The notes under the pieces were generated by a model. It saw only the letters and a list, made by a program, of their open reading frames with translations, was not told the origin of the DNA and did no database searches. Positions 22,857 through 52,381 of a stretch of DNA of 64,000 bases are shown here, in pieces (the first letter of the stretch is position 1; every line of letters starts with the position of its first letter). The translations under genes were made by a program, and so were the position numbers. Source of the DNA: Scenedesmus sp. PABB004 (taxonomy: Eukaryota); contig JABVCE010000002.1 in NCBI GenBank assembly GCA_014905635.1, forward strand, positions 124,001 to 188,000. Reading direction: 5' to 3'.

Positions 22857-26352
<3,496 letters not shown>

Positions 26353-29226: not shown

Positions 29227-32200
29227 TCACCTGCGGCCCCGCCCGCGGCCGCCGCCGCCGCGGCCGCCGTGCGGCGTGCCGCGCCCGCCGCCGCGCCCGC
29301 CGCTGCCGCCGCGGCCCATGCTGAAGCCGGGGCTGCCGCCGCCCCGGCCGCCGCCGCGGCCGCCGCCGCGGCCGCCGTAGCCGCCGCCGCTGCGGCCGTA
29401 GCCGCCGCCGCCGTCGCCGTAGCCGCCGCCGCCAAAGCCGCCGGTCGCAAAGCCCTCACGCTCCTTGAGCTCGGGCAGCCCGGTCGGCACGAGCAGCACG
29501 GGCGGCTTCTGCCCCGCCGGCCGGCGGTCGCCGTCGGCCTCGCCCGCGTCGGCCGCGCCCTCGCCGCACTGGGCGATGAACTCGGGCACGTGCTGGCTGG
29601 GCACGTCAAACACGGCGCCGCAGCCGTCGGCGGTCAGCGTCATGCGCCGCACCTCCTCGACCAGCGGCTCCGGCAGGCGGCGCCGCAGGAAGGTGAAGAC
29701 GTACCCCGGCTTCTGCACCTCCCACCCCGCCCTGCGGCGGCGGGCGGCGGCCGCGGCGGTGAGCGCATGCGTGCGGCTGCGCCCTGCGGTGCACGCGGCC
29801 GCGTCCCCGGCCCTGGCCCTTGCCCTTGCCCCGACCCCGGCCCTGGCCCGCCGCGCCGCGCCGCCGCGCCGGGCCGCCGGGCTCACTTGAACATGAGGGT
29901 CGTGAAGCCGTCATGCGCGGTGAGCAGGCTGCGCGCGCGCATGCCGGTCTGGCCGGTGATCTTGGCCAGCGCGAGCGCGAGCGCCTCGGCCGGGTCGCCG
30001 ACCTCGGCCAGCCACGCCTCGGCGGTGTCCTTGAACCAGCCGACCGTGGCCTTGTCCACCTCGCGCAGCATCTCCAGCGCGCGCCCCGCCGCGATGCCCG
30101 CCATCTCGGCCGGCTGCGGCGCGCCGACGCGCTCAAACTTGAAGCCTGGGCGGCGACGCGGCGCCGGCGGCGGCGGCGCACGGGGCGGCGCGTCAGCCAG
30201 GCCCGGCGCGCGCCCCGGGTGGCCCGCCGCGCCCGCCCCGCCCCGCCCGCCGCCAGGCTATTTCGGCGCGCACCCGCTTTCTTCTCAATGTAGGGGATGC
30301 GCTCCTCGTGCTTGCGGCCGACGAGCGTGATGCACACGCCCGTGTGGCCCGCGCGCCCGGTGCGGCCGCTGCGGTGGATGTAGGTCTCGGGGTCCTTCGG
30401 CGGCTCAACCTGCACCCGGCGGCGCGGCGGGCGAGTCCGCGGCGTGGGGCGCGGCGGGCGGCGCGGCGCGGGGCCACGGCACGCGAGCGCGAGCGCAGAG
30501 GGGGGAGGGGCTGCGCGCGCGGCGTGCGAGCGGGCTGTCAGCGCGCTGGTCGCGGCGGCCGGCACTGGCGGCGGCCGGCCGCGTGGAGAGCCAGGTGCGC
30601 TGCGGGGGTCGCTGTCGCTCCAAAGGAAGCCGGGTAGCCCACGGGGGTGGGGCGCACCAGCCCTAGTAGGAGCTAGCAGGGAGGGAAGGGCTGCGCCCGC
30701 GTCCCGCCTGGTCACCCCCCTCTGCCTGCCCGCTCCCCTGGCAGGCCTAGCCGCCCCCCCCTGGATTGCCCCGGGCGCCGCACCTGGATGACCAGCTCCA
30801 CGCCGCTGATGTCCAGCCCGCGCGCCGCAACGTCCGTCGCGACGAGCACGCTGAACTTGCCGCTGCGGAAGCCCGCCAGCGTGGCCTCGCGCTGCGCCTG
30901 CGCGATGTCGCCGTGCAGCGCGCTGCGCGTGGCGGCGGGCGGCGGCGGGCGGGCGGGCCGTGAGCCCCGCGCGCCGGCGTGCGCCGCGGCGCGCGCGGCT
31001 GCCAGGCCCCCGCCGCGCGCGCGGCTGCCGCCCCCCCCCCCCCCCCCTCTGCGCGCGCTCACCGCGCGCCGACGACCTCGCTGAGGCTGCCCGCGAGCTC
31101 GTTGGCGTCGTTCTTGGTCTCCGTGAACACGATGGACCGCCCGCCGCAGCCGTAGCAGGCGACCAGGTCGGTCACGAGGCTCACGCGCTGCGTCCAGTGC
31201 GCCGGCAGCATGAGGTGGCGCACCGTCGTCGCCGCCTGCGGCCGGGGGCGCGGCGGGCGGGCGGGCGGCGGCGGCGTCGGGGCTCCGCCCCGCACTGCTC
31301 GCCGCGGGCGCGCGGGCCGCGGCGAGCCACTGCGCGCGCCGGGGGCCAAGGCAGCGCGGGCAGGCAGCGTGCTGTACGCGCTGTGCGTCCTGTGCGCGCC
31401 GCGCGCGCCTTGAGCTTGTCGTCGCCGACGAGGTCCACCAGCTTGTGGCCCTTGGTGAGGAAGCGGCGCGTGATGTCGCGCACCCAGGTCGGCATGGTCG
31501 CGCTGAACAGCAGCGTCTGCAGCGTGCCGCCGCCCGCGTTCTTGCCCGGCTCGGGCGCGGCGCCGTCCTTGGCGCCCGCGTTGAGGATCTTCTCGACGTC
31601 ATCCACAAACCCCATGTTGAGCATCTCGTCGCACTCGTCCAGCACCCTGCGTTGAGGGGTGTGGAGGTGTGTGTGAGGAGGCGTGTGCGTGGGAGCGCGT
31701 GCATGCGGGTGGGCGACGGCCGCGTGCGTGCGGGTCCGGCAGCGGGGAGGCGCCAGCCGAGCGCGAGCGGCGGCACGCGCGCGCGCCTGAAGCGCAGCTG
31801 CCCGAGCTTGAGGCTGCCGCGCTCCATGTGGTCCTTCACGCGCCCCGGCGTGCCGACCACGACGTCCACGCCGCGGCGCAGCGCGCCTTCCTGCGGGCCG
31901 TAGGGCGTGCCGCCGTAGAGGCAGACTGTGGAGAGGCCGGCCGCCTGGCCGATGTACTCAAAGTCGGCGTGCACCTGCGCGGGAGGGGGAGAGGGGGGCG
32001 GGCACGGGGCGGCGGCGGCAGCGGCGCGTGAGCGCTGCCCCGGCAGCCGCCGGCAGCCGCCGGCAGCCGCCAGCAGCCGCCGCCGCCGCCGCCGCCGCCG
32101 CCCCCGCCGCGTCGGCGCGCCTGCTTGGCGAGCTCGCGCGTCGGCGCGAGCACGATGACCGCCGGCGCGCGGCCAAAGGGCCGGCGCCCGCTGGACGCCG

Positions 32201-32699
32201 CGCCGTCGGCGAGGCTCTGCACGATGGGCAGCACAAACGCGAGCGTCTTGCCGCAGCCCGTGCGCGCGCGGCCGACGACGTCCTTGCCCTCCAGCACGGT
32301 GTCGAAGCACGCCGCCTGGATGGCAAACAGGGCCTCGATGCCCTTGCTGCGCAGGAGGCTCTTGATGGGCTCGCTCAGCGCAAAGTTGTCGAGCGCGAGC
32401 GGCTCCGGCGGCGGCGCGGCCGTCGCCGCCGGCGCCGCCGCGGCCTCCTCCGCGCCGCCGTCGCTGCTCGCCGGCTCGGCGTCGCTCGCGGCGGCCTTGG
32501 CGGCCTTCTTGGCGGCCTTCTCGGCCTTGCGGGCCTTCTTGGCGGCGTCGCCGCCGTCGGCGGCTGCCGCCGCCGCCGCCTCGGCCTTGCGCTTCTTCTT
32601 GGCGCCCTTCTCCGCGCTCCCGCCCGGTGACGCGGCGGTGGGGGAGTCGGCCTCCTTACGCGCCCGCTTGCCGGCCTTGCCGGCCTTCGTGGCCGACAT
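29227..32699 (-). CDS. RH7: DEAD-box RNA helicase RH7/DDX21 family (GUCT domain, RGG tail)
   Basis: K-rich N-terminus, [45 protein letters not shown]-like region ([12 protein letters not shown]...AVFDVP) and RGG tail. 8 exons, 3 GC donors. Confidence 0.92.
30585..30720 (-). ncRNA. Candidate structured intronic RNA element in RH7 intron (30783-30410)
   Basis: Hand-folded nested stems on the pre-mRNA strand and base composition unlike neighbouring introns (see findings). Confidence 0.35.
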
Positions 32700-32940: not shown

Positions 32941-35435
32941 ATGGCGTCGCTACAGCTGCGCAACTGGGCGGTGTGCTCGCGCAGCGACAGCATCATGTCC
33001 GCGCGCGCCCCCCGGCCGCGCGCGCTGCTGCAGCGGCAGGGCTGCTGCGCTCTCCCCCTGCGGCTCTGTCGCTCGCGCACGACGGCGGTGCGGCCCGCGG
33101 CGGCAGCGCAGGTCGAGGAGGCAGCAGCAGCGGCCGGGAACGGCAACGGCGGCGTCGCGCACGACAACCACTACAAGGAGCCGGTGCTCGCGCCCTCCAC
33201 GCTCACCGTGCACGGGTGCGCGGCCCCGCCGGCGCAGCGCCCGGCCCTTGGCGCGCGCCGCGCCCCGCGTGCCCGCCCGCGCCCGCCAGGGCCGCCCGCG
33301 CCCTGATCCGGGGGCCGCGCGGGCGGTGCGCAGCCAGCGGCGGCGCGGCGAGGGCCGGCGCGGCGCCGGCGCGGGCGCGGGCGCGGGCGCGGCGCTGCTG
33401 CTGCTGCAGCCGCCGCCGGGCCGGCGCGGCGCCGCGGCGGCAGCATTGCCTGCGGCGGCCGCGGCGCCGGCGCCGCTGGCGCGCCGCGCACCTGCGGGCG
33501 CCCCCCGCCGTGCGCGCCATGCGCGGCCGCGGCACGCGGGGGGAGGGGCGCCGACCGCCGCGCGCCGCCGCGCGGCTGCCGCTGCGCCCCGCCCTGTGCC
33601 GCCGCCGCCGCGCCGCGCGCCCACCCCGGCGCCCCCGCCCCGCGCGCGCCCTCTCTCTCGCGCGCCCCGCAGCGGCGAGCGCGCAGGGCGCATGCGCCAG
33701 GGCCTGCTGGACAGCCTGACGACGCCGATCGTGCAGACGAGCACGTACACGTTCAAAAACACGGCCGAGCTCATCGCGTACCAGGAGGGCCGGCACGGGA
33801 GCTTTGAGTACGGGCGCTACGGCAACCCCACGGCGCGCGTGGTCGAGGAGAAGATCATGGCGCTCGAGGGCGCGGAGGACGCGCTGCTCAGCAGCAGCGG
33901 CATGTGCAGCGCGACGACGATGCTGCTCGCGCTCGTGCCGCAGGGCGGGCACATCGTCACCACGACCGACTGCTACCGCCGCACGCGCCAGTGAGACGCG
34001 CGGCGCGCCGGCGCCGCGGCGGCGCGGCGCCGGGGCACGCATGGCGCCGCGGCAGCTGGCGCAGCGGGGCGAGCTGCGCCGCGGGCGAGCGCGCCCAAAG
34101 GCGGCAGCGGGCCGCGGCGGCCGCACTTAACGCCGCGCCGCGGCCGCCGCCTTCACCACCGCCACCAGGTTCATCCAGACCGTGCTGCCCAAGATGGGCA
34201 TCAGCTGCACCGTGCTCGACCCGTCCGACCTCGCCGGCCTCGCGCGCGCGCTCGAGGCGCACAAGGTCTCCCTCTTCTTCAGCGAGTCGCCGACCAACCC
34301 CTACCTGCGCTGCGTCGACATCCCCGCGATCGCCAAGCTCTGCGCCGCGACCGACACGATCGTCTGCATCGACAGCACCTTTGCCACGCCCGTCAACAGC
34401 CGCGCGCTCGCGCTCGGCGCCGACCTCGTCATCCACTCGGCGACCAAGTACCTCGCCGGGCACAACGACGTCCTCGCCGGCGCGATCGCGGGCAGCGCCG
34501 ACCTCGTGGAGCAGGCGCGGCGCGGCGGCGCGGCGGCGCGGCGCGCGGCGCGGCGGCGGCGCGGCGGCGCGGCGGCGCGGCGGCGGCGCGCGCGCCGGCG
34601 GCGCGGCTCACCGCCGCCCGCGCGCCCGCGTCCCCGCGCGGGCTCAGGTGCGTTCGATGCACAACATCCTGGGCGGCGTGATCGACGCGCACGCGGCCTA
34701 CCTGCTGCTGCGGGGCATGAAGACGCTCGGCCTGCGCGTGGAGCACCAGAACCGCACCGCGCTCGAGCTCGCGCGCCGCCTGGAGGGCCACCCCAAGATC
34801 TCGCGCGTCCACTACCCCGGCCTGCCGAGCCACCCCGACCACGCGATCGCGTGCCGGCAGATGACCGGCTTTGGCGGCGTCATCTCGTTCGAGGCGCGCG
34901 GCGCCCGCGGCCGCGCAGCGGCGCCCCAGCACCAGCGGCGCGGCGCTGCGCACGCCCCAGGCGCTGGCGTGCCCGTGCGCTGCTGCGTCCTTGCCGTCCC
35001 GCTCACGCCGCCGCGCTCACGCCGCCGGCCCGCGCCGCGCACGGGCGCGCAGGTCAAGGGCGACCTGTGGAAGACGGCCGCGTTCATCGATGCCGTCGCG
35101 CTGCCCTACATCGCGCCCAGCCTGGGCGGCGTGGAGAGCCTCATCGAGCAGCCCACCATCATCAGCTACTGGGACCAGGCGCGTGCAGCGCGGCGCGGCG
35201 CGGCGGCGCGCTCCCGCGGCAGCCGCCGCCGTGCGAGGGGCCGGGCGCGCGCGCCGACCGCCGAGAGCGCGCGCCGACCGCCGGGCGCTGACCGCCGCTG
35301 CCGCCGCCGCGTGCGCAGGGGCCTGAGAAGCGCGCCGAGATCGGCATCAAGGACAACCTGGTGCGCTTCAGCTGCGGCGTGGAGGACAAGGAGGACATCT
35401 GGGCAGACATCGTCCAGGCGCTGGACAAGATCTGA
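32941..35435 (+). CDS. CGS: Cystathionine gamma-synthase, plastid
   Basis: TTPIVQTSTYTF, FEYGRYGNPT, SSGM, ESPTNP, IDSTFATP, HSATKYLAGHNDV (PLP lysine), IAPSLGGVESLIEQP, LVRFSCGVED. 6 exons; GC donors at 34515, 34894 and 35179. Confidence 0.95.
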
Positions 35436-36543: not shown

Positions 36544-37126
36544 TCACGGCCCCGCCGGCGCGGGCGCCGCCGCGCTCGGCGCCTGCCCCGCCGTCGCCAT
36601 CGCGGTCGCGGGCGTCGACGCGGCGACGCGGTTGACGCTGGAGAGCGTGAACACGTACTCGGTGCCCGCGCGCAGCCCGCGCGCCGCGTACACGCCGCCC
36701 GCGCTCGCGGGCACGCTGACCGCGTCCAGCACGCGCTCGCCGCTGCGCAGCTCGTAGCCGTCCAGCTGGTAGCGCTCCACGCACGCGCCGCCGTCGCCGT
36801 CGCGCCAGCGCAGCGTGATGACGTCCGACCCGGGCGCCCCGGCGGCCGCAAACTCGGCCGGCGCGGCCGGCTCCGACGCCGACGCGCAGCCCGCGGGCGC
36901 GGCCGCGGCCGCCGGCTCCGGCGCGGGCAGCGCCGCCGCCGCGGGCGGCGCCGCCGCCACGGCTTGCGCCGCCGCCGGCGCGGGCGCGCCTGGCGCGGGC
37001 GCAGGCGCGTAGCCGCCGAAGAGGCCAAAGAGGCCGAAGAAGCCCCACGACGCCGGGGCGGGGGCCGGCGCGGGCACGGGAGCCGCCACGGGCTCTGCCG
37101 CCACGGGCCGCGCCGCCACGGGCTGA

Positions 37127-37160
<34 letters not shown>

Positions 37161-38010
37161 GCCTGGCCGCCGGCGCGGGCGCGGGGGTGGCGGGCCTGGC
37201 CGCTGGCGCGGCCTTGAACGCGCAGCTCGCGCCGCCCTCCCAGCCCCAGAGGCGGCCGGCGGAGTCCTTGTTGGTCGTCGAGGTGCGCGCGTCGCCCTTG
37301 CACGCGGGGGCCGACGCCCAGGCGTCGCGCGCCGGCGCCGCCACCGCCGCCGCCGCCGGCGCCGAGCGGTACGCGCAGCTCGCGCCGCCCTCCCAGCCCC
37401 AGAGCCGGCCCTGCGCGTCGCGGCCGGCCGCCGCGCCCGGCGCGCCCTTGCACGCGGGCGCGCGCGCCCAGGCGTCGCCGCCGGCCGGCGGCGCCGGCGC
37501 CGCGCGGCCGCCCCCGGCGCCGCCGCCGCCAGACGTCTGCACTGCCACGACCGCCATGTCGCCAAGGTTAGCGGCCAGCGCGGCGACGTTGAACTGGTAC
37601 CGCCCGCCCGGCCGCAGCCCGCTCGCGGTGAACTCGCGCGCGTCGGCGCCCACCGCGCTGCTCGCGACCTTGGCGCCTGCGCGCACGGGGGGGGGGGGGG
37701 GGGGGGGAGGCGCCGCGGGTGACGCTTCGGCGGCGGGCGAAGGCCCCGCGCGCTCGCAACGAGCCTCCGGCCGGCGCCGCGCACCCGAGGACTGGTCGTA
37801 CACCTCTACGCGGTAGCCGCGCAGGCAGGCGCCGTTGGCGCTCGGCGCCGCCCAGACCAGCTTTGCGCGGCTGCTGTCGCCGCCGATGAGCCAGGCCTTG
37901 ACCTCGCGCGGCGCGCCCGGCCGCGCGGAGGCGTCGCACTGCGCGTGAACGCGTGCGCCGGCGCACAGCACCAGGGCCGCGACCAGCGCGGCGCACGCCA
38001 GGGAGTGCAT
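36544..38010 (-). CDS. Secreted FN3 + 2x CBM10-like (WGWEGGASC) + Pro/Ala-linker protein, paralog 1
   Basis: Signal peptide. FN3 motifs (W..P...GY.V; GLRPGGRYQFNVAA; GLRAGTEYVFTLSSVN). Two W..APACKG...D..GRLWGWEGGASCA modules. Exons 38010-37785 and 37676-36544. Confidence 0.8.
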
Positions 38011-38946
38011 CCTGCGCCGGCCGCCAAGGCCGCTCTACGGCGCGCACGGGCTGCGCCGGGGCTCGCGCGCAGTCGCGACGTAGCACAAAAAACTGCGCGC
38101 GGCTCGGTGGCACGTGTGGTGAGAGAGCACGCGGTCCCACGAGCGCGCGCGCGGTCCGACTGTCGTCGCGCGCCTTGGCTGCCGGCGGGGGCCGCAAGCA
38201 ATGCTGCGGCGTCTTGGACGAGCAAACCCAAAGTAAAGGCTGCCGAACCTGCGGAGCCAAACGGCCGGACGCCTGGTCCAGCGTGCGTCAGGGCTCAGAG
38301 CAGCGGCGTAACTTTCGTTCCGCCGGCGGCGGCTCCACCTCGCGCTGCAACCTGCTCACGACATGCCAGCCACTCTGCCGCCGCGCCGCCTGCGGCGCGG
38401 CCGCCAGGGCCGCAGCCAGGCTGCGCACAGCACGCCGCGCGACGCCGCACCCCGCTCCTCCACAGAGTCGCCCTCTCTCTCTCTTCTTCTTTTTCTTGTC
38501 CTAGCATCGTGAACCCCTGCAGCGCACGACCAAAAGAGGAGCCACCCCTGCAGCGCCCCACGACTCTGGTGCCTGACCTGCTGATGGTTTTATTGGTATG
38601 CATGAGCCCAGCCGCGGGTGGGTGCACGTGCGCCACAGCTGCGCGCACAAACCGGTCCCCCCGACTTTCTGCCTGCCCGCCCACCTGCACAGCGCTGTCC
38701 AGAGCAGCAAAGCGTCCGCGCTCAGCGTGGCTACCGACGCCGCGTGCAGCTCCTGCAGCTGCCGCGGCCCCCGTGCGCGCGGCCGGCGCCACGCGGTGGC
38801 GCCGGCGCGCCGCGCGGGCGGCCAATCCGGCCGCCGCGGCACGATACCCTTGCGACCGCGCCCCCGAGCTGACCCGAGCTGCCCCCTGCCCGCCCGCGCC
38901 CTCCCGCTCCTCGCCGTCATGTTTCGCCCCCGCCGCGCCCCGGCGC

Positions 38947-40592
38947 CTACTCCTTGGGGATGCTGGCCATCGCGGTCGCGGGCGTGGAGTCGCCCGCGGC
39001 GTTGAGCGCGGTCACGGTGATCGCGTACTCGACGCCGCGCTGGAGCTGGCTCAGCGTGAAGCTCGTGGCGGACACCTTGGCCTCCGCGACGCGGTCGCCA
39101 GTCTTGAGCGCATACGCGTCCACCCGATACTCGGGCGCGCAGATGCCGGCGTTGCCGTTGGACCAGGTCAGCGCGAGCTTGTCGCTGCCCACGGGCCGCG
39201 CCTTGAGCTCCGCCGGCGCGTACGGCGCGGCGTCGGCGACGCAGCCCGGCGATGCGCCGTCCGGCGCGGTCGCCGCGCCGCCCGGCGCCGCGCTGCCCGA
39301 CTCGGTGCCGCGCGGCGCCGCGCCGGCCGCGGCCGCCACGCCGCCCGCGTCGGTGGCGACGCGCAGCGTCGCCGCGCCGCCGTCGCCCTGCGCGGACGTG
39401 GGCGTCACGGTGACGGTGAAGGCGCTCGAAGGTGACAAGTCGGTGATCAGCAGCTCCCGGTAGGTCACGTCGACGCGCGTGCTCACCACGCTGCGGCCTG
39501 CGCGCGCGCGGCGCGGCGGCGCCGGGCGTGCGCGCGTGGGGCGGGCGTGCAGCGGCGCGCGTCAGCAACAGAGCGAGCGAGGGAGGGAGGCAGCGCGCGC
39601 GGCGGGGTGCGCCGCGGTGCGCCGCGGCGGCGGCGTGACTCACGCCCCGCCTCGTCGACCACGTCGACGCGGTAGCCGCCGAGGCAGCCGGGCGCGGCGG
39701 GCAGGGACCAGCGCAGGTGCAGCGTGCGCGCGTTGGAGGCGTACGGCCCGCCGACCAGCCCCCGCACGGCGCTGGGCTTGCAGCCGTCGTTCGCGGGCGC
39801 GGGCGCGGGCGCCGGCGCCGGCGCCAGCGCCGGCGGCGCGGGCGCCTGTGCAGGTGCCGGAGCCGGCGCCGCGGCGGGCGTGGGCCTGGGCGCGGGCCCG
39901 GGCTGGGCCCGGAACGCGCACGACGCGCCGCCCTCAAAGCCCCACAGGTTGCCCTTGGAGTCGCGGCTGCTGGGCGTGGTGCTCGGGCTGCCCTTGCACG
40001 CCGGCGCGCGGAGCCAAGCGGGGTCGGCGGCCGGCGCCGCGGCCGTCCTTGCGACGGCGGAGCTCGTCGGGCTGTTGCCGCGCCGCCGGCTGAGGGCCAC
40101 CACCTCGACCGTGTAGTCGGTGGACGGCCGCAGGCCGCTGATGACCTGCCCCGGCTGCGCGTTGGGAACTATCTGCCCGGGCGCGCCGCCGCTGCCCCGC
40201 ACCGCCACTGTCCCGCGGCAGCCGCGGCGAAGCGGCGGTGGCGGCGGCGGCGGCGGCGGCAGCGCGTGCGCGTCAGCCACATTTGCGGCGGCGTGGCCAG
40301 GGGCCGTGCTTTGGGGGGCGCTGCCCAAGCCGCCGCCGGACGGGCGTCACCGGATCGCGGCGCTGCTGCACGCACCTGTGTAGGAGTCGACGCACGCCGC
40401 GTTGCTCGGGCCGCCCCAGCGGACGCGCAGGGAGCCGGCCGCCTGCGCGCGCTCCACGGCCAGCGCGCGGAGCGCGGTGGGCCGCGCGTCGGTGCAGGCC
40501 GCCTGCTGCGCTTCAACTGACGGGCTGTACGCCACGCAGAGGATCACCGAGAGCACCAGCGCCGCCCGCGCGGTGCGCATGGGTGGCGCCAT
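38947..40592 (-). CDS. Secreted FN3 x3 + CBM10-like protein, paralog 2
   Basis: Signal peptide. Exons 40592-40376, 40207-39644, 39497-38947. GLRPSTDYTVEV, WLRAPACKG..DSKGNLWGFEGGASCAF, LQRGVEYAITVTALN. Confidence 0.8.
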
Positions 40593-41238
40593 GGCCGCCT
40601 CCAACCGATCGGACCCTTTCTGGCAGGTGCTCGCGGGCCTAGCGAGGGCTGCGCGACGCGCCGCGTGCAGAACGGCGTGTGAGCGGCCGGCGCACGCGCG
40701 TCAAAGCGCCTGCCACCAGAACCGCCGGCGCGCGGCGGCTGCGCTGCGTTCCGGCGGCCAACTGGTGACGCCAGCTGTCCCCCCCCCTCCCCGCCGCCGC
40801 TGGTCGTCGTCTTCAATCTGATTGCTGCCGCCGGGTGACTCCCGTGAGCTGTGACGGCGGGCAGCGAGCGTTGCCAAGCACCGCGCTACATGCGCCAGCA
40901 CACCCGCCACGGTCGAAGCCCAGAGAGCTCGTATCTCCGCGCTGGCAAAACACAAGAGCACGTGCAGCAGACCAATCGGTGCAGTGTGGGCGCTCGAGTG
41001 CCCCCCTCGCCAGTCATCACAGCTGCGCGCGGCTGCGCTCGCAGCAGCAGTCACGGGCCGGCGCCCAGAGCAGCCGACGGCCTCCTGCGGTTCAACATCC
41101 TGCCTCTCCAGCTCGCCAGCTCAAGAGACACGCTCCCTGCCTATGTGCACGCCCGCGCCTGCAGCGACGCAGCAGGCCCAGCGCGGCCAGCTGCCGCGCC
41201 CGGGCCCGCACCACGCCCCCCGCCCCCTCCCACACCCC

Positions 41239-43286
41239 TCAGCGCCCGCTGCCGGCGCGGCGCGGCGGCGCCGGCGCCGCCGCGGGCGCGCGCGCGGCGA
41301 GGGGGATGCTGGCCATCGCGGTCGCGGGCGTGGAGTCGCCCGCCGCGTTGACCGCGGCGATGGTGAACGCGTAGGTGACGCCCGGCTTGAGGTGCGCGGC
41401 GACAAACTGGTTGAACGCGGTGCTCGTCTCCAGCACGCGGTCGCCGGTCTTGAGCTCGTAGGCGTCGATGTGGAACGAGTCGGTGCAGACCGAGGGGTCG
41501 GCGTTGCTCCAGCTCAGCACGATCGTGTCGCGCCCGGACGCCTTGGCGTCAAAGCCGAGCGGCGCGGGCGGCTCGGCGTCGGCGCGGCAGTCGCCCGTGC
41601 TGATGGCCGCCTGCGCCGGCGGCGGCGTCCAGGGCTGGAAGGCGAGCTGCTCGGGGCTCTCCGTGGTGATGGCGGGCGCGGGCTGCGGCGCCGGCGCGGG
41701 CGCGGGCGCCGCCGCGGGCGGGGGCGCCGGCCGGAACGCGCAGCTCGCGCCGCCCTCGTAGCCCCAGAGCCGGCCGCGGCCGTCCTTGGTGGTCACCGAG
41801 GTGCGGGGGTTGCCGTTGCAGGGGCGCGCGGACAGCCAGGGGTCGCCCGCGGCCGGCCGCGGCGCGGGGCGCGGCGCGGCGGGCCGCGCCGGCGCCGGCG
41901 TCGGCGCCGGCGCCGGCCGCGGCGCCGCGGGCCGCGCGGGCGCCTGTGCGGGCGCCTGTGCGGGCGCCGGTGCGGGCGCCTGTACGGGCGCTAGTGCGGG
42001 CGCGGGCGCCGGGCCGTCGGTCGTGACCGAGGCGTAGGCCTTGGGGCCGTCGCCGGCGGCGTGGGTGGCGAGGACGATGAAGTTGTAGCGCGTGCCCGGC
42101 AGCAGCCCGTTGACGCCCAGCTCCTCCACGCCCGAGCGCACGGTGATGTCGACGACCTTTTGGGCTGCGGCGCGGCGCGGCGGGCGCGGCGGGCGCGGCG
42201 GGCGCGGCGGCGCGGTGGGCGCGGCGGCGCGGTGGGCGCGGCGGCGCGGTGGGGGCGAGCGCGGACGTGGCAGGGTGGGCGGTGCGCCCCGCCTGCCGCG
42301 CCGCGCGTCACCTGTCTTTGCGTCAAAGCCCTGCACCTTGTAGCCCGTGAAGCAGGCGTTGACCGGCACCTTGGGCGCGTCCCACGCGACCGTCACCTTG
42401 TCAGCGCGCCCCGCGACCTTGGTGATGCGCGCCGCGCTGGGCGCGCCCGGCGTCTGCCGCGGGTTGCAGCTGGGGCCGGTCAACGTGGTGACCGTGGCGG
42501 TCGCAAAGGGCCCCGACCCTTGCCGCCTGCGCCGCGCCGGGCGGGGCGGGGCGGTCGGCGGTCGGCGGTCGGCGGTCGGCGGTCGGCGGTCGGCGGTCGG
42601 CGGTCGGCGGTCGGCGGTCGGCGGTCGGCGGTCGGCGGTCGGCGGTCGGCGTTCGGCGTTCGGCGTTCGGCGGTCGGCGGTCGGCGGTCGGCGGTCGGCG
42701 GTCGGCGGTCGGCAGTCGGCGGCGGCGCGGCGCGGCGCGGCGCGGCGCGGCGCGTGACGGCTGGGCGCCGCACCTGCTGACGGGCACGACGTCCACACGG
42801 TACGCGGTGTTGGGCTTGAGGTTGGAGATGATCACGCTGCGCGAGCGCACCTTGTGCGGCGACGGCTCGCGCGTCGCGCCGCTCAGCGGCCGCACGAGCA
42901 CTGCGCGGGCGTCGGCGGAGAGGGTGGGCGTGGGGGCGGCGCCGCCGGGCGCCGGGTTCGGCCCCCCGGCCCGCCGGCGCGGCGTCACCAGCCAGCTGCC
43001 GGCTGCTGCTGCGCCCGCCGCCGCCTGCCGCCGCCGCCGCGGCGCGCTGCTGCCGCTGCGCTGCGCCCAGGCGCCACCCACCAAAGTAGTGGTCGACGCA
43101 GGCGTTGTTCTCGGGCGCGTCCCAGATGGCGCCGATGCTCGACGTGGCCGGCATGGCGCGCAGGCGCAGCGCGCGGGGCTTGTTTGGCCGCAGCGACGCC
43201 GCGCACGGCGACTGCGACTGTGCGTGAGCTAGTCCCGCGGTCGCCAGCAGCAGCACCAGCGCCGCCGCGCAGGCGCGGGCAGCCAT
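41239..43286 (-). CDS. Secreted FN3 x3 + CBM10-like protein, paralog 3
   Basis: Signal peptide MAARACAAALVLLLATAGLAHA. Four exons. NLKPNTAYRVDV, GLLPGTRYNFIV, WLSARPCNG..DGRGRLWGYEGGASCAF, LKPGVTYAFTIAAVN. Confidence 0.8.
42550..42720. repeat. Intronic heptamer minisatellite (GGCGGTC)n, about 24 units
   Basis: Directly visible, with a few GGCGTTC variants. Confidence 0.95.
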
Positions 43287-47413: not shown

Positions 47414-48827
47414 TTACAGCTCGTACGTGTAGCGCGGCGGCAGGCCCTCGCCCCCATTGGCGCCGGCGCCTCCGCCGCCGGCGGCGGCGGGGTGCTCGCC
47501 GCCGCGCCGCGCGTCCTGCGCGGCGTCGCGCCGCGCCTGCGCCGCGTCGTCGGCGCGCCAGCGGCGCACGTCGCCCCAGGGGTAGGTCCGGAAGCAGCTG
47601 CGGCAGCCCTGGCAGGCCCAGGCGTGGCAGCTCTCGATGAGGTGGTCCCCACCGAGGACTAGTCGCGCAGCATCCATGCCCGCCAACAGCGGCGCGCTGG
47701 GGAAACCGTACACCACCGGCATCACACGGGGGCCGCTGCCGCACTTGGGGCAGCGCCGCGTGGCCGCAAAGGCCGCCTGGCGGGCGAACTGCGCGCGCCA
47801 GCTCCCGGCGGGGGCCGCCGCCGGCAGCGCGGCCGCGGCGGCGGCGGCGGCGGCGGCGGCGGCCGTCGCCGCAGCGGCGCGGTCGCCCGCCGGCTGCGCG
47901 CGCCCCGCGGCCGCTGCCAGCGCGCCGGCTGCTGATGCGCCCGTGGCCGCCGTGCTGCTGCTCCTGCTACTGGTGCTGGTGCTGCTGCCGGCCAAGCTCG
48001 GGGCGTGGTCGCCGCCAAACAGCGGCACGCGGGCCCGCCCAGGCAGGCTGTGGCCGCCGCCCGCCGCCGCTGCTGCCGTTGCCGCGCCGCCCCCGCCGGC
48101 GTGCTCGCTCGTGGGGAAGATGGCGCCGTCCCAGCGCTCTGCGAAGAGCGGCCGCCACACGCCGTCGGCCGCCGCCGCACGGCGCAGCGCGCGGCACGTG
48201 CCCGCCGCGGCCAGCAGCGAGCGCCGGTCCAGGCGTGCCAGCACCGCCTCGAGCGCGTTGGCGGGCAGCCCGTCGAGCGACGGCTGCTCCGCGGGCGGCG
48301 GCGCGCCGCCCGGCTCCTGCTGGCGCGCGGCGGCGTCGTTGCCTTCGCCGCCCAGCGCGTCGCCCAGCGCAGCGGCATCGCTGGCACCGCCTGCCGCCGC
48401 CGGCCAGCCCGCAAACGCCGTCGCGTCAAAGTCCTCGCGGCCGCCGGGGGCGGGCGACGAGAGCACGGCACGAAAGTACGAGTTCACTGCGCGTGCACGT
48501 GCGCGGGGCGCAGTCAGCGGCCGCCGCGGGCCGCGCGTGCGGTGCTGCCGCCGTGCAGCGCCTCACCTGCCCAGTGGACCTTGCCCGCGGACGTGCGGAG
48601 GTGCCAGAGCAGCCGGGCTCTGTCGGCGTGCGGGCCGACGCGCGCCACCACCGCCGCCAGCAGCTCGTCCTCGTTGGCGCACTGCGGGGGCAAGCGGAGC
48701 GGCGCAGCAGCATCTGCGCCGCCGCCAGCCGCAGCGCGGCCGCCCTGTCCACGCCGTACGCTCTACGTACCGGTGGCGGGTCCTGCGCGAGCGAGAGCTT
48801 CACGCTGCCGCTGTCGAACAGCGCCAT
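47414..48827 (-). CDS. UBA-like + F-box + CxxC...CxxC zinc-ribbon protein
   Basis: Exons 48827-48771, 48681-48567, 48486-47414. LRTSAGKVHWAVNSYF (UBA-like), LDGLPANALEAVLARLD...TCRALR...VWR (F-box), CPKCGS...VVYGFP...LGG...WACQGC. Confidence 0.75.
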
Positions 48828-49078: not shown

Positions 49079-49389
49079 GTCGCCGCGCGCTGCTGCCCGG
49101 CGCGCCGCCACCCGGCGCGTCCGTCGCCGCGAGGCCGCCGCCCGCCTTGCCGCGCCGGGCGCCGCCAGCTGCGGCGTTGACCGAGCTGCTGGCCAGGCTG
49201 CCGGGCGGCTGCAGGCTGCTGCTGCTGGTCTCGCCGGCCTTGCTGAACCTGCGTGCAGCGGCGGTGCACGGCGTTGAGTCCCCGGCCGGCGGGGCCCGGC
49301 GTCGGCTGCAGCCCGGCACGTGGCCGGCACCTGCGGCGCCCCACCTCGGCAGCGGCGGGGGAGCGACGGCGGCGGGCGCCGCGGCGGCG

Positions 49390-49485
<96 letters not shown>

Positions 49486-50311
49486 GCGCGGCCGCCCTGC
49501 GCCTGGCTGTAGCCCTGCGGCGCCCACGCCTTGGCCGCGCCCGCCGGCTGCTGCGCGTATCGGCCGGCCTGCGGCGCGGCGAGGTGGGCAACGGGTGAAC
49601 GACGCGCACCGCCGGGAGGGGCCAGCCGCCGCGCGCGCGGTTGCTCGCCTGCTGGGCCCCGTGGCTGCCGCGGCGCTGCCGCGCCGCCGCGCCGCCGAGC
49701 GCCACGCCCGAAGCCTGTTGCGCCAGGCCGCCGCCCGGCTTGCCCGGCAGCCGCGGCAGCTGCAGCGGCGCCCCGCCGCCGCCGGGAGCGGCGTGCAGCT
49801 CGCTGGCCTCCTCGCGCGGACTGGCCCCGCTGGCCTGCAGCTCGAGCCCGTGCGTGTGCGTCGCCACCGACGCCTCGCTCGGCAGGCGCGCCAGCGAGCC
49901 CTCGTGCACGCGCAGGCTGGCGGCGCCTGTGATGGTCAGCCCGTCAAAGGCCAGCGGCGCCGCTTGCTGCAGCGCTGACTGCTGCGACGCGGCGCCGTGC
50001 GGCGGCAGCGCGCCGCCCGCGTGTGCCGCGTGGTGCTGCGCCTGGTGGTGGTGGTGTTGCTGCTGCTGCTGCGCCGGCGGCAGCTGCAGCGGCAGCTGCG
50101 GCGCCAGCTGCTGCGCGTGGTGCCCGGGCACCACACCCGCCGGCTGTGGCGGCGCGGCGGCGACCTTGATGCCGCTGCCGGCGATGGCTGGCAGGCTGGT
50201 GCAGCTGCTGCCGCCGCCGCACGCCGCCGCCGCCGCTGCGCCGTGCTCGCCAGCTGCGGGCGCAGCAGCAGGTGGCGGCGCGCCGTTGGAGGCGCGCCTC
50301 GTGGCCCCGCC

Positions 50312-50343
<32 letters not shown>

Positions 50344-52381
50344 CTGCCTCCAGCTGTGCCTCGCTGCAGCCGCCGCCCGCGGCCACCCCCGGCGCCGCGC
50401 CGTCCAGGCTGAGCGCGTGGGGCGCCGCGCCGAGCTGGCTGTGCCCGCCGCGCTCGCTGTCCCTGCGGCGCGCGGCGCGCGCGGCGTCGGCGCCAGCCGC
50501 GCGGCCCGAGCCCGCCGCTCGGCCCCGCCCCACGCGCGCGCGCGGGCGCGCGCGCGCGCGCACAGCGCCGCGCCGAGGTAGGCGGCGCCGAGCAGGTCTG
50601 GCGGCAGCGCCGCGCGCGCGCGCTTCTCGGCGTCGCGCAGCTCCCGGAAGTAGGGGTGCCGCAGCGCCTGGCGCGCGCTGAGGCGGTCGTCGGGGTTGTA
50701 CGTCAGCAGGCGGGCGATGAGGTCGGCGCAGTCGGGGTGCACGTGCCCCAGCAGCTTGCCGAGGCCGCTGCCCTGGCACGGCGCAAAGTCGAACGCCGCA
50801 GAGTGCGCGCTGCGCCGCTTGAGCTTGGCGAGCAGCTCCGGCGGCGGCGTGCCAAGCACGGCGTGGATCTTCTGGATCTGGTCCAGCTCGTTGGTGCCTG
50901 GCGGCGCGCCGCGCCGCGGGGTGCGGGGCGAGGCTGGGCGCGCGGGCGGCACGCGGGCTGGCGCCGAGCGCAGCGCGGCGTCAAACGACGGCCAGCGCCC
51001 TCACCCGGGAAGAGCGGGAAGAGCGCGACGACTTCAAACATGACGCACCCGACGCCCCACATGTCCATCTTGAAGTTGTAGTAGCCGTCCGTCAGCAGGC
51101 ACTCGGGCGCGCGGTACCTGGCGCGCGCGCGGCGGGCGTGCAGCCGCGCGCACGCGCGCGCGGCGGCGGGGCGGCCTCTGCCGGCCGCGGGGCTGCGGGC
51201 GGGCCGCGCACCGCGGCGGCGCGCGGCTGGCCTGGCGGAGCAGCCGGCGCGGCGCGTGCACCAGCGCGTGGAGATGTACTCGGTGTACGGCTGCTTGCTG
51301 TAGATGCCGCGGCAGGACCCAAAGTCGGCGAGCTTGAGCGCGTCGTCGGTGATGAGGATGTTCTCGGGCTTGATGTCCCTGCGACGTGCGACCGGCGGCG
51401 GCACACGAGGCGCGCGTCGGCGCGCGCACGCGCCGGGCAGCCCGCCGCGCGCCGCGCGCCGCCCCCGACGACTGCCACCGCGGCCGCGCGCCGGCAGGGC
51501 TGCCGCAGCTGCCGGCCGCGCGCGTCGCGCGCCGTGCCGCGCGCCTGTGGAAGATGCCGTTGCGGTGCATGTGGTCCATCGAGCGCAGCAGCTGGTAGAG
51601 GTAGCTGCGCGTGCGCTCCTCGGGCACGTAGTGCCGCCGCCCGCGGATGAGCTCGTAAATGTTCATGTCCTGACCCCCGCGGCGGCCGGCCGGGCCGGGT
51701 CAGCAGACGGCCCGGGCCCGCTGCACCCGGCCGGCCGCGGGCGCGCCGAGCCCGCCCGCCGCCGCGCCGCGCCCGCGCTGCCGCCGCGCCGCCGCGCCGC
51801 GCCGGCGCACCATGAGCTCGAACACGAGCGCGAGGCGCCCGGTGGGCTGGTCGTAGAGCACCTCCAGCAGCTTGATGATGTGGGGGTGCGGCGAGAGCCG
51901 GCGCAGCGCCTGGATCTCGCGCAGGCTGTTCACCTGGTCGAGCGAATCAAAGTGGCTCTTCATGCACTTGATGGCCACGTACTTGCCGTTCTTGATGCAC
52001 TGCGCCTTGAGCACCTCGCTGAACGTGCCCTCGCCCTTCTTCGCGACGAGGCGGTACTCTGCGGCGGCGCGCGCGGCGCGCGCAGCGCAGCGTGGCGGCG
52101 CGCGCGCGTGGGACCGCCGCCCCGGACGACGGCAGCGACAGCGGCGGTGGGGGCGGTCGGCGCGGCGAGCGCGCCGCCGCGGCCGCGCCCGCCCGCGGCT
52201 GGCGCACGGCGCGGGCGCTGCGCTGCAGGCGCGCGGCGCTGGCCGCCCGCGCCGCTGCCTGCGCCGCCGGCGGCGCCGGCATGCCAGGCCCTGCTGCAGC
52301 TGCCTGCAGACCACAGGTGCAGTCCAGGCTGCGGGGAGCGACCGCCGCCGCCCGCGCGTGCGGAGAGCGCTCACTGTGCAT
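49005..52381 (-). CDS. MOK: MOK/LF4 (long flagella 4)-type MAPK-related kinase
   Basis: MHKYRLVAKKGEGTFSEVLKA...[47 protein letters not shown], and a long disordered tail ending YVSPY. 8 exons. Confidence 0.92.
49392..49484 (-). repeat. (CAG)31 polyglutamine tract in the MOK tail
   Basis: Uninterrupted CTG run on +, read as Q31 in the last exon. Confidence 0.9.

Follow-up and report, generated by a model that had tools for sequence, protein, structure and literature searches.

A tandem trio of putatively secreted FN3 proteins in Scenedesmus sp. PABB004 carries a divergent module related to CBM_10 and fungal dockerins

Three tandem genes in a GC-rich window

The genome of Scenedesmus sp. PABB004, a chlorophycean alga of the family Scenedesmaceae, has been described as 39.8 Mb in size with a GC content of 78.5% (PMC12571836). 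A stretch of 64 kb (64,000 nucleotides, nt) of this genome, hereafter the window, was analysed; its GC content is 74-83% throughout. Between positions 36544 and 43286, the minus strand carries three tandem paralogs, G1, G2 and G3, in head-to-tail order, position 36544 being the final stop-codon base of G1 and 43286 the A of the G3 ATG. They encode proteins in which FN3 domains and Ala/Pro-rich linkers are combined with a small module containing two Cys residues. According to the gene models, which were built from the sequence and all run on the minus strand, G1 (36544..38010; 452 amino acids, aa) consists of two exons (38010-37785 and 37676-36544) separated by an in-frame intron of 108 nt (37784-37677). 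G2 (38947..40592; 443 aa) is made of three exons (40592-40376, 40207-39644 and 39497-38947) and two introns (40375-40208 and 39643-39498). G3 (41239..43286; 490 aa) has four exons (43286-43082, 42900-42774, 42526-42312 and 42164-41239), and its three introns (43081-42901, 42773-42527 and 42311-42165) come from the sequence-built model only. All six introns of the trio have GT..AG borders, restore the reading frame and measure 108-247 nt.

A protein encoded by the window has been deposited as 'hypothetical protein HT031_000967 [Scenedesmus sp. PABB004]' (895 aa; referred to here as P0010, other proteins being cited by similar numbers). This independent annotation covers G2 and G1 and uses the same splice sites for the one intron of G1 and both introns of G2 (3/3 identical). 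In P0010, moreover, the final G2 codons are connected with the G1 start codon (ATG) through an assumed GT..AG 'intron' of about 940 nt (38011-38952, minus strand), by which the G2-G1 intergenic region (38011..38946, minus strand; 936 nt, GC 0.73, without coding signal) is spliced out, and the signal peptide of G1 would then fall in the middle of the product. Because G2 has its own stop codon and G1 its own signal peptide, and because the supposed intron lacks coding signal and is 4-9 times as long as the six real introns, G2 and G1 are probably two genes and the fusion an artefact of annotation, as judged from the sequence. The poly(A) signal TGTAA was absent from the 3' regions of G1, G2 and G3.

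Repetitive DNA was also observed within the introns. Intron 2 of G3 contains, at 42550-42727, a heptanucleotide (plus-strand sequence GGCGGTC) repeated 25.6 times with 97% identity, which is read in the wrong frame as a long PTADRR-type peptide repeat. The G1 intron holds a run of about 20 C (37690-37720); the unspliced G1 open reading frame (ORF) looks intact because this run, when read through, mimics poly-Pro.

Architecture of the encoded proteins

The N-termini of G1, G2 and G3 are hydrophobic and, as read from the sequence, end in small-x-small sites (VHA/Q, VEA/Q and AHA/Q, respectively, with the slash marking the cleavage position). The three proteins are predicted to enter the secretory pathway via a cleavable signal peptide. 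No transmembrane (TM) helix or glycosylphosphatidylinositol-like tail was found in G1-G3, strongly hydrophobic windows of 19 residues being present only at the N-termini. Similarly, no catalytic domain was detected by Pfam in the three proteins, which contain only FN3-type domains and a weak match to CBM_10.

The Pfam fn3 cut-off (PF00041, 25 bits) is passed by three ORF pieces of the window, with 46.6 bits for G1, 51.7 bits for exon 3 of G2 and 63 bits for G3; a fourth piece that holds only half a domain scores 24.8 bits against the same cut-off. For P0010, which joins G2 and G1, fn3 reaches 146 bits over five stretches. Eight FN3 domains were delimited in the trio, all on the minus strand and lettered Fa, Fb and Fc according to the homologies described below. 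In G1, the first FN3 (37528..37941, residues 24-125) spans an intron at alignment column 54 in phase 1, and Fc (36586..36891, residues 338-439) has no intron. In G2, Fa (40038..40499, residues 32-129) contains an intron at column 46 and Fb (39343..39785, residues 214-312) one at column 54, both in phase 1, and they are followed by Fc (38956..39246, residues 345-441). In G3, Fa (42475..43208, residues 27-128) spans two introns and Fb (42010..42471, residues 130-234) has a phase-1 intron at column 54; Fc (41302..41592, residues 374-470) shows 52% identity with G2 Fc and 57% with a protein fragment, P0155, discussed below. An identical Cys pair, with one residue before strand A and the other in a C-x-x-Y/F motif, is found in all eight domains, and in mature G1-G3 every Cys belongs to one intradomain pair. 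Apart from this additional disulfide, which is unusual, the FN3 domains of the trio are typical of PF00041.

Ala/Pro-rich stretches, defined as at least 75% Ala plus Pro over at least 20 residues, occur in all three proteins, which contain 40-68 AP/PA dipeptides each, and the linker DNA includes many short GC-rich tandem repeats. The long Ala/Pro linker of G1 covers 36856..37224 (minus strand; residues ~227-349). At 37009-37050 a hydrophobic Phe/Gly motif, SWGFFGLFGLFGGY, interrupts its Ala/Pro run; this motif is absent from G2 and G3. No N-x-S/T sequon is present in G1-G3 (0 in 1385 aa together), so any glycosylation of these proteins would be O-linked. A whole-protein word search with the G1 ORF returned 0 matches among 8000 candidates, probably because Ala/Pro words swamped the signal, and a search with the module region succeeded. 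A Protein Atlas search with the C-terminal FN3 gave generic FN3 clusters only.

With M standing for the two-Cys module, the signal peptide is followed in G1 by FN3 (Fb-type), M1, M2, the long Ala/Pro linker and FN3 (Fc); in G2 by FN3 (Fa), M, an Ala/Pro linker, FN3 (Fb) and FN3 (Fc); and in G3 by FN3 (Fa), FN3 (Fb), an Ala/Pro linker, M, a further linker and FN3 (Fc). The domain orders are FN3-M-M-FN3, FN3-M-FN3-FN3 and FN3-FN3-M-FN3, exactly as they had been given in an earlier sequence-only reading of the window. That reading had described three co-oriented secreted paralogs, whose coordinates proved exact and all of which have signal peptides. The two to three FN3 domains with paired Cys that it had assigned to each protein were recovered by Pfam, with the Cys pair in 8/8, and its Pro/Ala linkers were found in all three proteins. 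Its one or two module copies per protein correspond to four copies of 37-39 aa, and the absence of a catalytic domain, TM helix or anchor that it had noted agrees with the Pfam scan and the hydrophobicity windows. Its mention of autospores, which hinted at a Chlorella-like alga, came close, the genome being that of a Scenedesmus.

The two-Cys module

A six-frame scan of the 64 kb with the pattern WG[WFY]E..SC gave four matches, all located within G1-G3. They mark M1 (37366..37476, 37 aa) and M2 (37213..37326, 38 aa) of G1 and the single modules of G2 (39909..40025, 39 aa) and G3 (41731..41844, 38 aa), all on the minus strand. The four modules contain two Cys each and are invariant at 17 of 38 columns. 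The W-G-W/F/Y pair is present in every copy, the second Trp being replaced by Phe in G2 and by Tyr in G3. Together, M1 and M2 of G1 make up a tandem duplication of 153 nt (37218-37512, 1.9 copies, 80% matches).

A profile made from the four window modules (A1) was searched against 1.84 billion representative proteins and matched 250 representatives at E ≤ 1e-3, 84 of them at E ≤ 1e-10. A Pfam scan was then available for the 147 best new matches. CBM_10 (PF02013, 'Cellulose or protein binding domain', which covers bacterial CBM10 and the dockerins of anaerobic fungi) was the recurring Pfam family among them, found in 64/147 at E ≤ 0.05 and in 21/147 at ≥23 bits, and it was also detected in three of the seven first matches of the module-region search. 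Moreover, A1 retrieves true CBM_10 enzymes, namely P0068, a GH5 protein from the chytrid Gaertneriomyces semiglobifer (66.3 bits with the Pfam model), P0054, a GH5 fragment (73.6 bits), and P0080, a bacterial astacin protein (94.9 bits). P0153, another bacterial match of A1, has no Pfam CBM_10 at E ≤ 0.05. When the window modules were aligned by HHalign with 20 modules from P0054, P0068, P0080 and P0153, a probability of 97.8% was obtained (E 7.5e-13, 23 columns), compared with 37.2% for a reversed template and at most 1.9% for column-shuffled templates in 20/20 runs. The whole algal family aligned with those CBM_10-type modules at 97.9%.

Some matches of A1 were set aside. P0087 (WD40), P0100 (HYR_4C) and the Scabin-like P0019 and P0094 were false positives that arose from summed weak repeats, and they stand outside the set of 280 modules described below. 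Weak Pfam matches to GMC_oxred_C were also seen inside module arrays, at 30.2 bits in P0063 (cut-off 24.6) and at 17.9-22.9 bits in P0017, P0041, P0008 and P0033, with no single stretch passing; they are probably a coincidence of motifs.

The fold of the module was predicted with AlphaFold. The model of a single module (AF2) has a predicted local distance difference test score (pLDDT) of 82.2, and the model of the M1-M2 pair of G1 a pLDDT of 81.0 and a predicted template modelling score (pTM) of 0.42, with a disordered linker between the modules; the core of M1 reaches a pLDDT of 87-92. Both models consist of a short helix and a small sheet, with a hairpin formed by L-W-G-W-E and A-S-C-A-F. 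In a Foldseek search with the single module, the Piromyces equi dockerin structures 1e8p and 2j4m took ranks 1-2 of 350,542 chains (template modelling scores 0.56 and 0.55; root mean square deviation 2.5-2.7), and with the two-module model 2j4m was at rank 1 and 1e8p at rank 3. VIA-align, which does not rely on Foldseek, placed 3 of 48,161 chains at Z ≥ 2, with 1e8q (Z 2.9) and 2j4n (Z 2.6) at the top. The bacterial CBM10 structures 1E8R and 1QLD were absent from the Foldseek and VIA-align lists, an absence that does not count against them.

Altogether, the transitive profile matches, the HHalign result compared with its controls and the dockerins as best structural matches lead us to regard the module as a divergent member of the CBM_10/fungal-dockerin superfamily. 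This assignment is solid enough to act on, although the scores of the module stay below formal thresholds. The CBM10/fungal-dockerin-like character suggested by the sequence-only reading is supported by the profiles, by the HHalign alignment and by the dockerins coming out on top in two aligners.

A module family in green algae

After filtering by score and coverage, the family comprises 280 modules from 140 proteins, with the consensus W-E-x-A-P-x-C-x3-P-T-x2-N-S-V-x-D-x2-G-R-L-W-G-W-E-N-G-x-S-C-A-F-R. Exactly two Cys are found in 270/280 modules. Conservation is highest at Trp27 (99%) and Asp21 (96%), followed by an aromatic residue at position 29 (93%), Phe or Tyr at position 37 (90%) and Trp3 (83%). 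Tandem arrays of two to four copies are usual (two copies in 76/157 proteins, three in 46/157). Organism names were obtained for 9/27 family proteins, one of them from a chytrid. The organism-named members of the algal type come from Tetradesmus obliquus (3), Chlamydomonas reinhardtii (1), Tetrabaena socialis (1), Haematococcus lacustris (2) and Scenedesmus sp. PABB004 (3), with one Chromochloris label from the Joint Genome Institute (JGI). We take all the named algal sources to be Chlorophyceae, a placement checked for Scenedesmus. Named members are labelled hypothetical or mis-named 'rimM', and the seven first module matches carry no precomputed Pfam domain.

In P0003, P0006 and P0018, a basic stretch and a TM helix lie upstream of C-terminal module arrays, and from the positive-inside rule these arrays would be extracellular. 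The three proteins (from Tetradesmus and Scenedesmus PABB004) share a recurrent chlorophycean layout in which a long N-terminal region and the TM helix are followed by a conserved juxtamembrane domain that Pfam does not match, by a Pro-rich stretch and by 3-4 C-terminal modules. In P0018 the whole ectodomain appears to be duplicated internally.

Carbohydrate-active catalytic modules were found in only two of the 147 representatives, the GH5 proteins P0068 and P0054. An observation of another kind concerns P0060, which is encoded on the same 2.76-Mb contig as P0010, beyond the window, and annotated as 'rimM'. It contains a RimM part, an unassigned domain of ~500 aa, a Pro-rich linker and two modules, and the RimM part is probably a fused neighbour. 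The ~500-aa domain gave nothing by Pfam at E ≤ 10, and a PDB phmmer search with P0060 returned RimM only. It was likened to GH113 (clan GH-A) by a protein-language-model search (0.94; 165/256 features), which is a lead only; if this likeness is real, P0060 would have an enzyme-linker-CBM layout in the same alga.

Pfam fn3 was detected in 1/147 family representatives, which is the window's own protein. Only P0155, a fragment of 203 aa, was recovered as a relative by a protein search with the C-terminal FN3; its identity is 56-57%, it has the same Cys pair, and in it an FN3 domain is followed by a Ser-rich linker and a second FN3. When metagenomes were scanned with the FN3 alignment (A3), none of the 596 matches to the pattern could be confirmed. 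The corresponding scan with the module alignment (A1) led to a single locus, rejected as a chance match of 11 residues without Cys in DNA of 65% GC. Among the proteins searched, the FN3-plus-module architecture is seen only in Scenedesmus sp. PABB004. In the literature searched, no paper was found on CBM10 or PF02013 in green algae, none was found for Cre12.g540900, and the PABB004 papers found contain none on the module. The earlier statement that no characterised family has this architecture is in line with these results. 'Novel Cys-rich CBMs' have been proposed on volvocine GH9 cellulases (PMC6032398, 2018), and the '2-C motif' described there, the motifs being given as pictures only, may overlap with the module.

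History of the trio

The identities between FN3 domains of the paralogs are 16-52%, which indicates that the duplications are old. Intron positions allow the domains to be matched with each other. A phase-1 intron at alignment column 46 is common to the Fa domains of G2 and G3, and a phase-1 intron at column 54 is common to the first FN3 of G1 and the Fb domains of G2 and G3; the C-terminal FN3 domains of the trio have no intron. Since position and phase agree, the first FN3 domain of G1 is the counterpart of the second one in G2 and in G3. The homologous orders are Fb-M-M-Fc in G1, Fa-M-Fb-Fc in G2 and Fa-Fb-M-Fc in G3. M precedes Fb in G2 but follows it in G1 and G3, so that at least one relocation or re-insertion of the module must have taken place after the duplications; the intron positions support the module shuffling suspected from the domain orders. 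Exon shuffling is excluded for the module because the modules are not bounded by introns, and unequal recombination in the repetitive linker DNA is suggested as the process that would have moved it.

The genes around the trio were examined for a functional cluster, a candidate that was rejected. At 24033-26216 (plus strand), 29389-32624 (minus), 33650-35214 (plus), 47543-48370 (minus) and 50545-52110 (minus), the flanking genes encode a biotin carboxylase, a DEAD-box helicase with a GUCT domain, a pyridoxal-phosphate enzyme of Cys/Met metabolism, an F-box protein and a protein kinase, ordinary genes of which none is wall-related. A long CAG/CTG run is located at 49305-49592, in a region of coding-like composition; it reads as poly-Gln on one strand and as poly-Leu on the other.

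Possible roles of the trio

It is proposed, with a probability of roughly 0.55, that G1-G3 are secreted glycoproteins of the matrix or wall whose CBM10-type module binds a wall component; perhaps half of this probability would fall to cellulose specifically. In the wall or extracellular matrix of this scenedesmacean alga, the proteins would be modular glycoproteins without enzymatic activity, built like beads on a string, with disulfide-stapled FN3 domains and the 38-aa single-disulfide module folding independently and Ala/Pro-rich linkers between them. In the hairpin L-W-G-W/F/Y-E / A-S-C-A-F, the invariant Trp and the aromatic residue that follows it would lie on one face, and this face may contact a wall glycan, which in Scenedesmus would be of the type of a beta-1,4-glucan or a mannan, or else, possibly, a glycoprotein partner. 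Hydroxylation and O-glycosylation would turn the Ala/Pro linkers into stiff spacers, and the FN3 domains could serve as spacers or make contacts to other matrix components. In this way, G1-G3 might decorate wall layers or tie them together, without catalysis. CBM10s have been described as binding cellulose, mannan or galactomannan via Y8/W22/W24 (PMC8121702; PMC4642672). A beta-glucan ligand is plausible in Scenedesmus because cellulose is reported to form an inner layer of the S. obliquus wall, beneath a sheath of algaenan (PMC11839794).

Several results weigh against this proposal. The window modules are under the Pfam CBM_10 cut-off of 23 bits, with 13.1 bits (E 0.14) for the G1 ORF and 15.4 bits (E 0.026) for P0010, and many of the above-threshold CBM_10 scores in the family are made of summed weak repeats, with no single stretch passing. 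Because it was the window profile that had retrieved the modules used as HHalign templates, this test is not fully independent, and the Pfam model is the independent element. PDB sequence searches with profile A1 and phmmer returned no CBM10 or dockerin chain; A1 gave one chance match, to an immunoglobulin light chain (E 0.7), and P0011 only chance matches to WD-repeat chains. None of the structural scores reaches significance (E 0.33-5.3, Z < 3), which is no surprise with only ~40 residues, and the dockerin likeness of the AlphaFold models may have been learnt from the PDB. In the comparison by HMM and structure called for by the sequence-only reading, homology to CBM_10 was recovered for the family as a whole and a dockerin was the top match, but the window copies taken by themselves fell short at 13.1-15.4 bits and the structural matches did not reach significance. 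Furthermore, the module has a single disulfide where two are canonical, and only a candidate equivalent of Tyr8, and G1-G3 contain just one or two modules and no enzyme. The deposited protein is unlisted in the main text and one supplement of a maternal-wall proteome of S. obliquus, which is another species and for which few peptides were reported.

The distribution of the family adds to this counter-evidence. To our knowledge, walls of the Chlamydomonas type are without cellulose. The module family occurs in Chlamydomonas, Tetrabaena and Haematococcus too, and a review describes the walls of Chlamydomonas and its relatives (Volvocales) as coverings of hydroxyproline (Hyp)-rich glycoproteins. 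The presence of the family in these glycoprotein-walled algae argues against cellulose as its general ligand. The general ligand may be another glycan or a glycoprotein, which keeps alive a reading in which the module docks proteins, as fungal dockerins do, and does not bind polysaccharide. The trio would then be adaptors that plug into a matrix scaffold or receptor, or that recruit module-bearing partners. We consider this a real but minor possibility. It draws on the fact that the best structural matches are fungal dockerins and not bacterial CBM10, on tandem copies with short linkers being the rule in the family, which recalls the double dockerin 2j4m, on the success of the family in glycoprotein-walled Volvocales and on the many members that appear membrane-anchored with extracellular arrays. 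However, the structural scores that favour dockerins are the insignificant ones given above, and the fungal modules ride on enzymes whereas those of the trio are on FN3 proteins. No cohesin-like or ScaA-like partner is known or turned up, no search having been aimed at a scaffoldin, and P0060, from the same genome, resembles the classic enzyme-CBM layout, as a lead only. A wider form of the same idea would be that in Chlorophyceae, with cellulosic or purely glycoprotein walls alike, modules of the CBM10/dockerin type, expanded specifically in this lineage on non-enzymes that are either secreted or anchored in the membrane, serve as a general extracellular docking code for the assembly of wall or matrix, the trio being soluble adaptors whose modules were re-positioned by recombination in linker DNA. 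This broader proposal is more speculative still and seems rather doubtful; if true, it would provide a non-degradative counterpart of the fungal dockerin system.

Other readings were also considered. Scenedesmaceae form coenobia and arrays of FN3 are typical of adhesion proteins; G1-G3, as secreted, anchor-free, multi-domain proteins with extended linkers, might act in cell-cell adhesion during coenobium formation, daughter-cell cohesion or flocculation, with FN3 domains making homophilic or heterophilic contacts and the module anchoring the protein to its own wall. This is improbable, as no adhesion-specific feature was seen in the sequences and a single FN3 relative was found beyond this genome. 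Finally, in DNA of 79% GC, where ORFs are abundant in all six frames and the linkers are partly low-complexity DNA, the trio could consist of spurious reading frames or decaying pseudogenes. Such an artefact is very hard to reconcile with significant fn3 matches, four modules that match a family of 250 members, six canonical introns that restore the frame, intron positions common to the paralogs, Cys residues that are all paired within domains in the mature proteins and the independent deposited model P0010, and we give it almost no weight.

The module family provides algal-wall research with a named, testable module and with candidate wall-assembly proteins; what it offers is a well-defined hypothesis and not the discovery of a function. 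Scenedesmus-type walls matter for harvesting, digestibility and product release, and PABB004 is said, in the title of a paper, to be sugar-secreting. In addition, the trio shows cleanly, on a small scale, how domains have been re-ordered between tandem paralogs, and the intron positions that these have in common serve to date the changes.

Comparison with known systems

The FN3 domains, small binding modules and Pro-rich linkers of the trio recall FN3-containing bacterial glycoside hydrolases, from which the trio differs in having no catalytic domain and in the extra disulfide of its FN3. Ala-Pro repeats resemble arabinogalactan-type glycomodules. Compared with Hyp-rich and arabinogalactan-protein-like wall glycoproteins, the trio is without Ser-Pro(n) extensin motifs and pherophorin motifs.

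With the dockerins of Piromyces equi (1E8P/1E8Q; double dockerin 2J4M/2J4N), the module shares a length of ~40 aa, stabilisation by disulfide, a short helix with a small antiparallel sheet and tandem occurrence, but identity is 18-21% and the Cys pattern is another one. In fungi, dockerins are borne by enzymes, which they attach to scaffoldins, whereas the trio has no enzyme, and we know of no scaffoldin partner in algae. The repeats of the chytrid GH5 protein P0068 and of the bacterial astacin- or epimerase-like proteins P0080 and P0153 are closer in motif, with the same single Cys pair and a D-x2-G-x-W-G-F/W-E-N-G-x-S-C core. Unlike the algal modules, they measure 21-29 aa, have no W-x2-A-P lead-in and are appended to catalytic domains.

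Likeness to CBM10 is found in size, in motif and in setting. At 37-39 aa, the module is within the 29-42 aa given for CBM10 of CAZy (PMC8121702), and it has the C...D-x2-G-x-W-G-W-E-x-G-x-S-C core of the CBM10 of Cellvibrio Xyn10A (PDB 1E8R), the aromatic residues of the hairpin matching W22 and W24 by motif. In the planar aromatic triad Y8/W22/W24 of CjXyn10A, the candidate counterpart of Tyr8 is Trp3, which is 83% conserved. As in CBM10, tandem copies stand behind Pro-rich linkers in an extracellular setting. By contrast, the algal module has at most one disulfide where the canonical CBM10 has two, and it adds an N-terminal W-x2-A-P-x-C and a C-terminal A-F-R/K. One characterised CBM10 subgroup is reported to have a single disulfide and to bind soluble mannan weakly (PMC8121702; PMC4642672). 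The window modules also differ from CBM10 in not being on a carbohydrate-active enzyme and in belonging to a green alga, and in the literature examined CBM10 and the fungal dockerin are treated as modules of bacteria and anaerobic fungi that degrade plant cell walls. Set beside these systems, the sequences point to a divergent branch of CBM_10 that appears common in Chlorophyceae, mostly on non-enzymatic extracellular proteins. What seems to be new is this divergent subfamily of modules, chlorophycean among its named algal sources, placed in a new non-enzymatic architecture.

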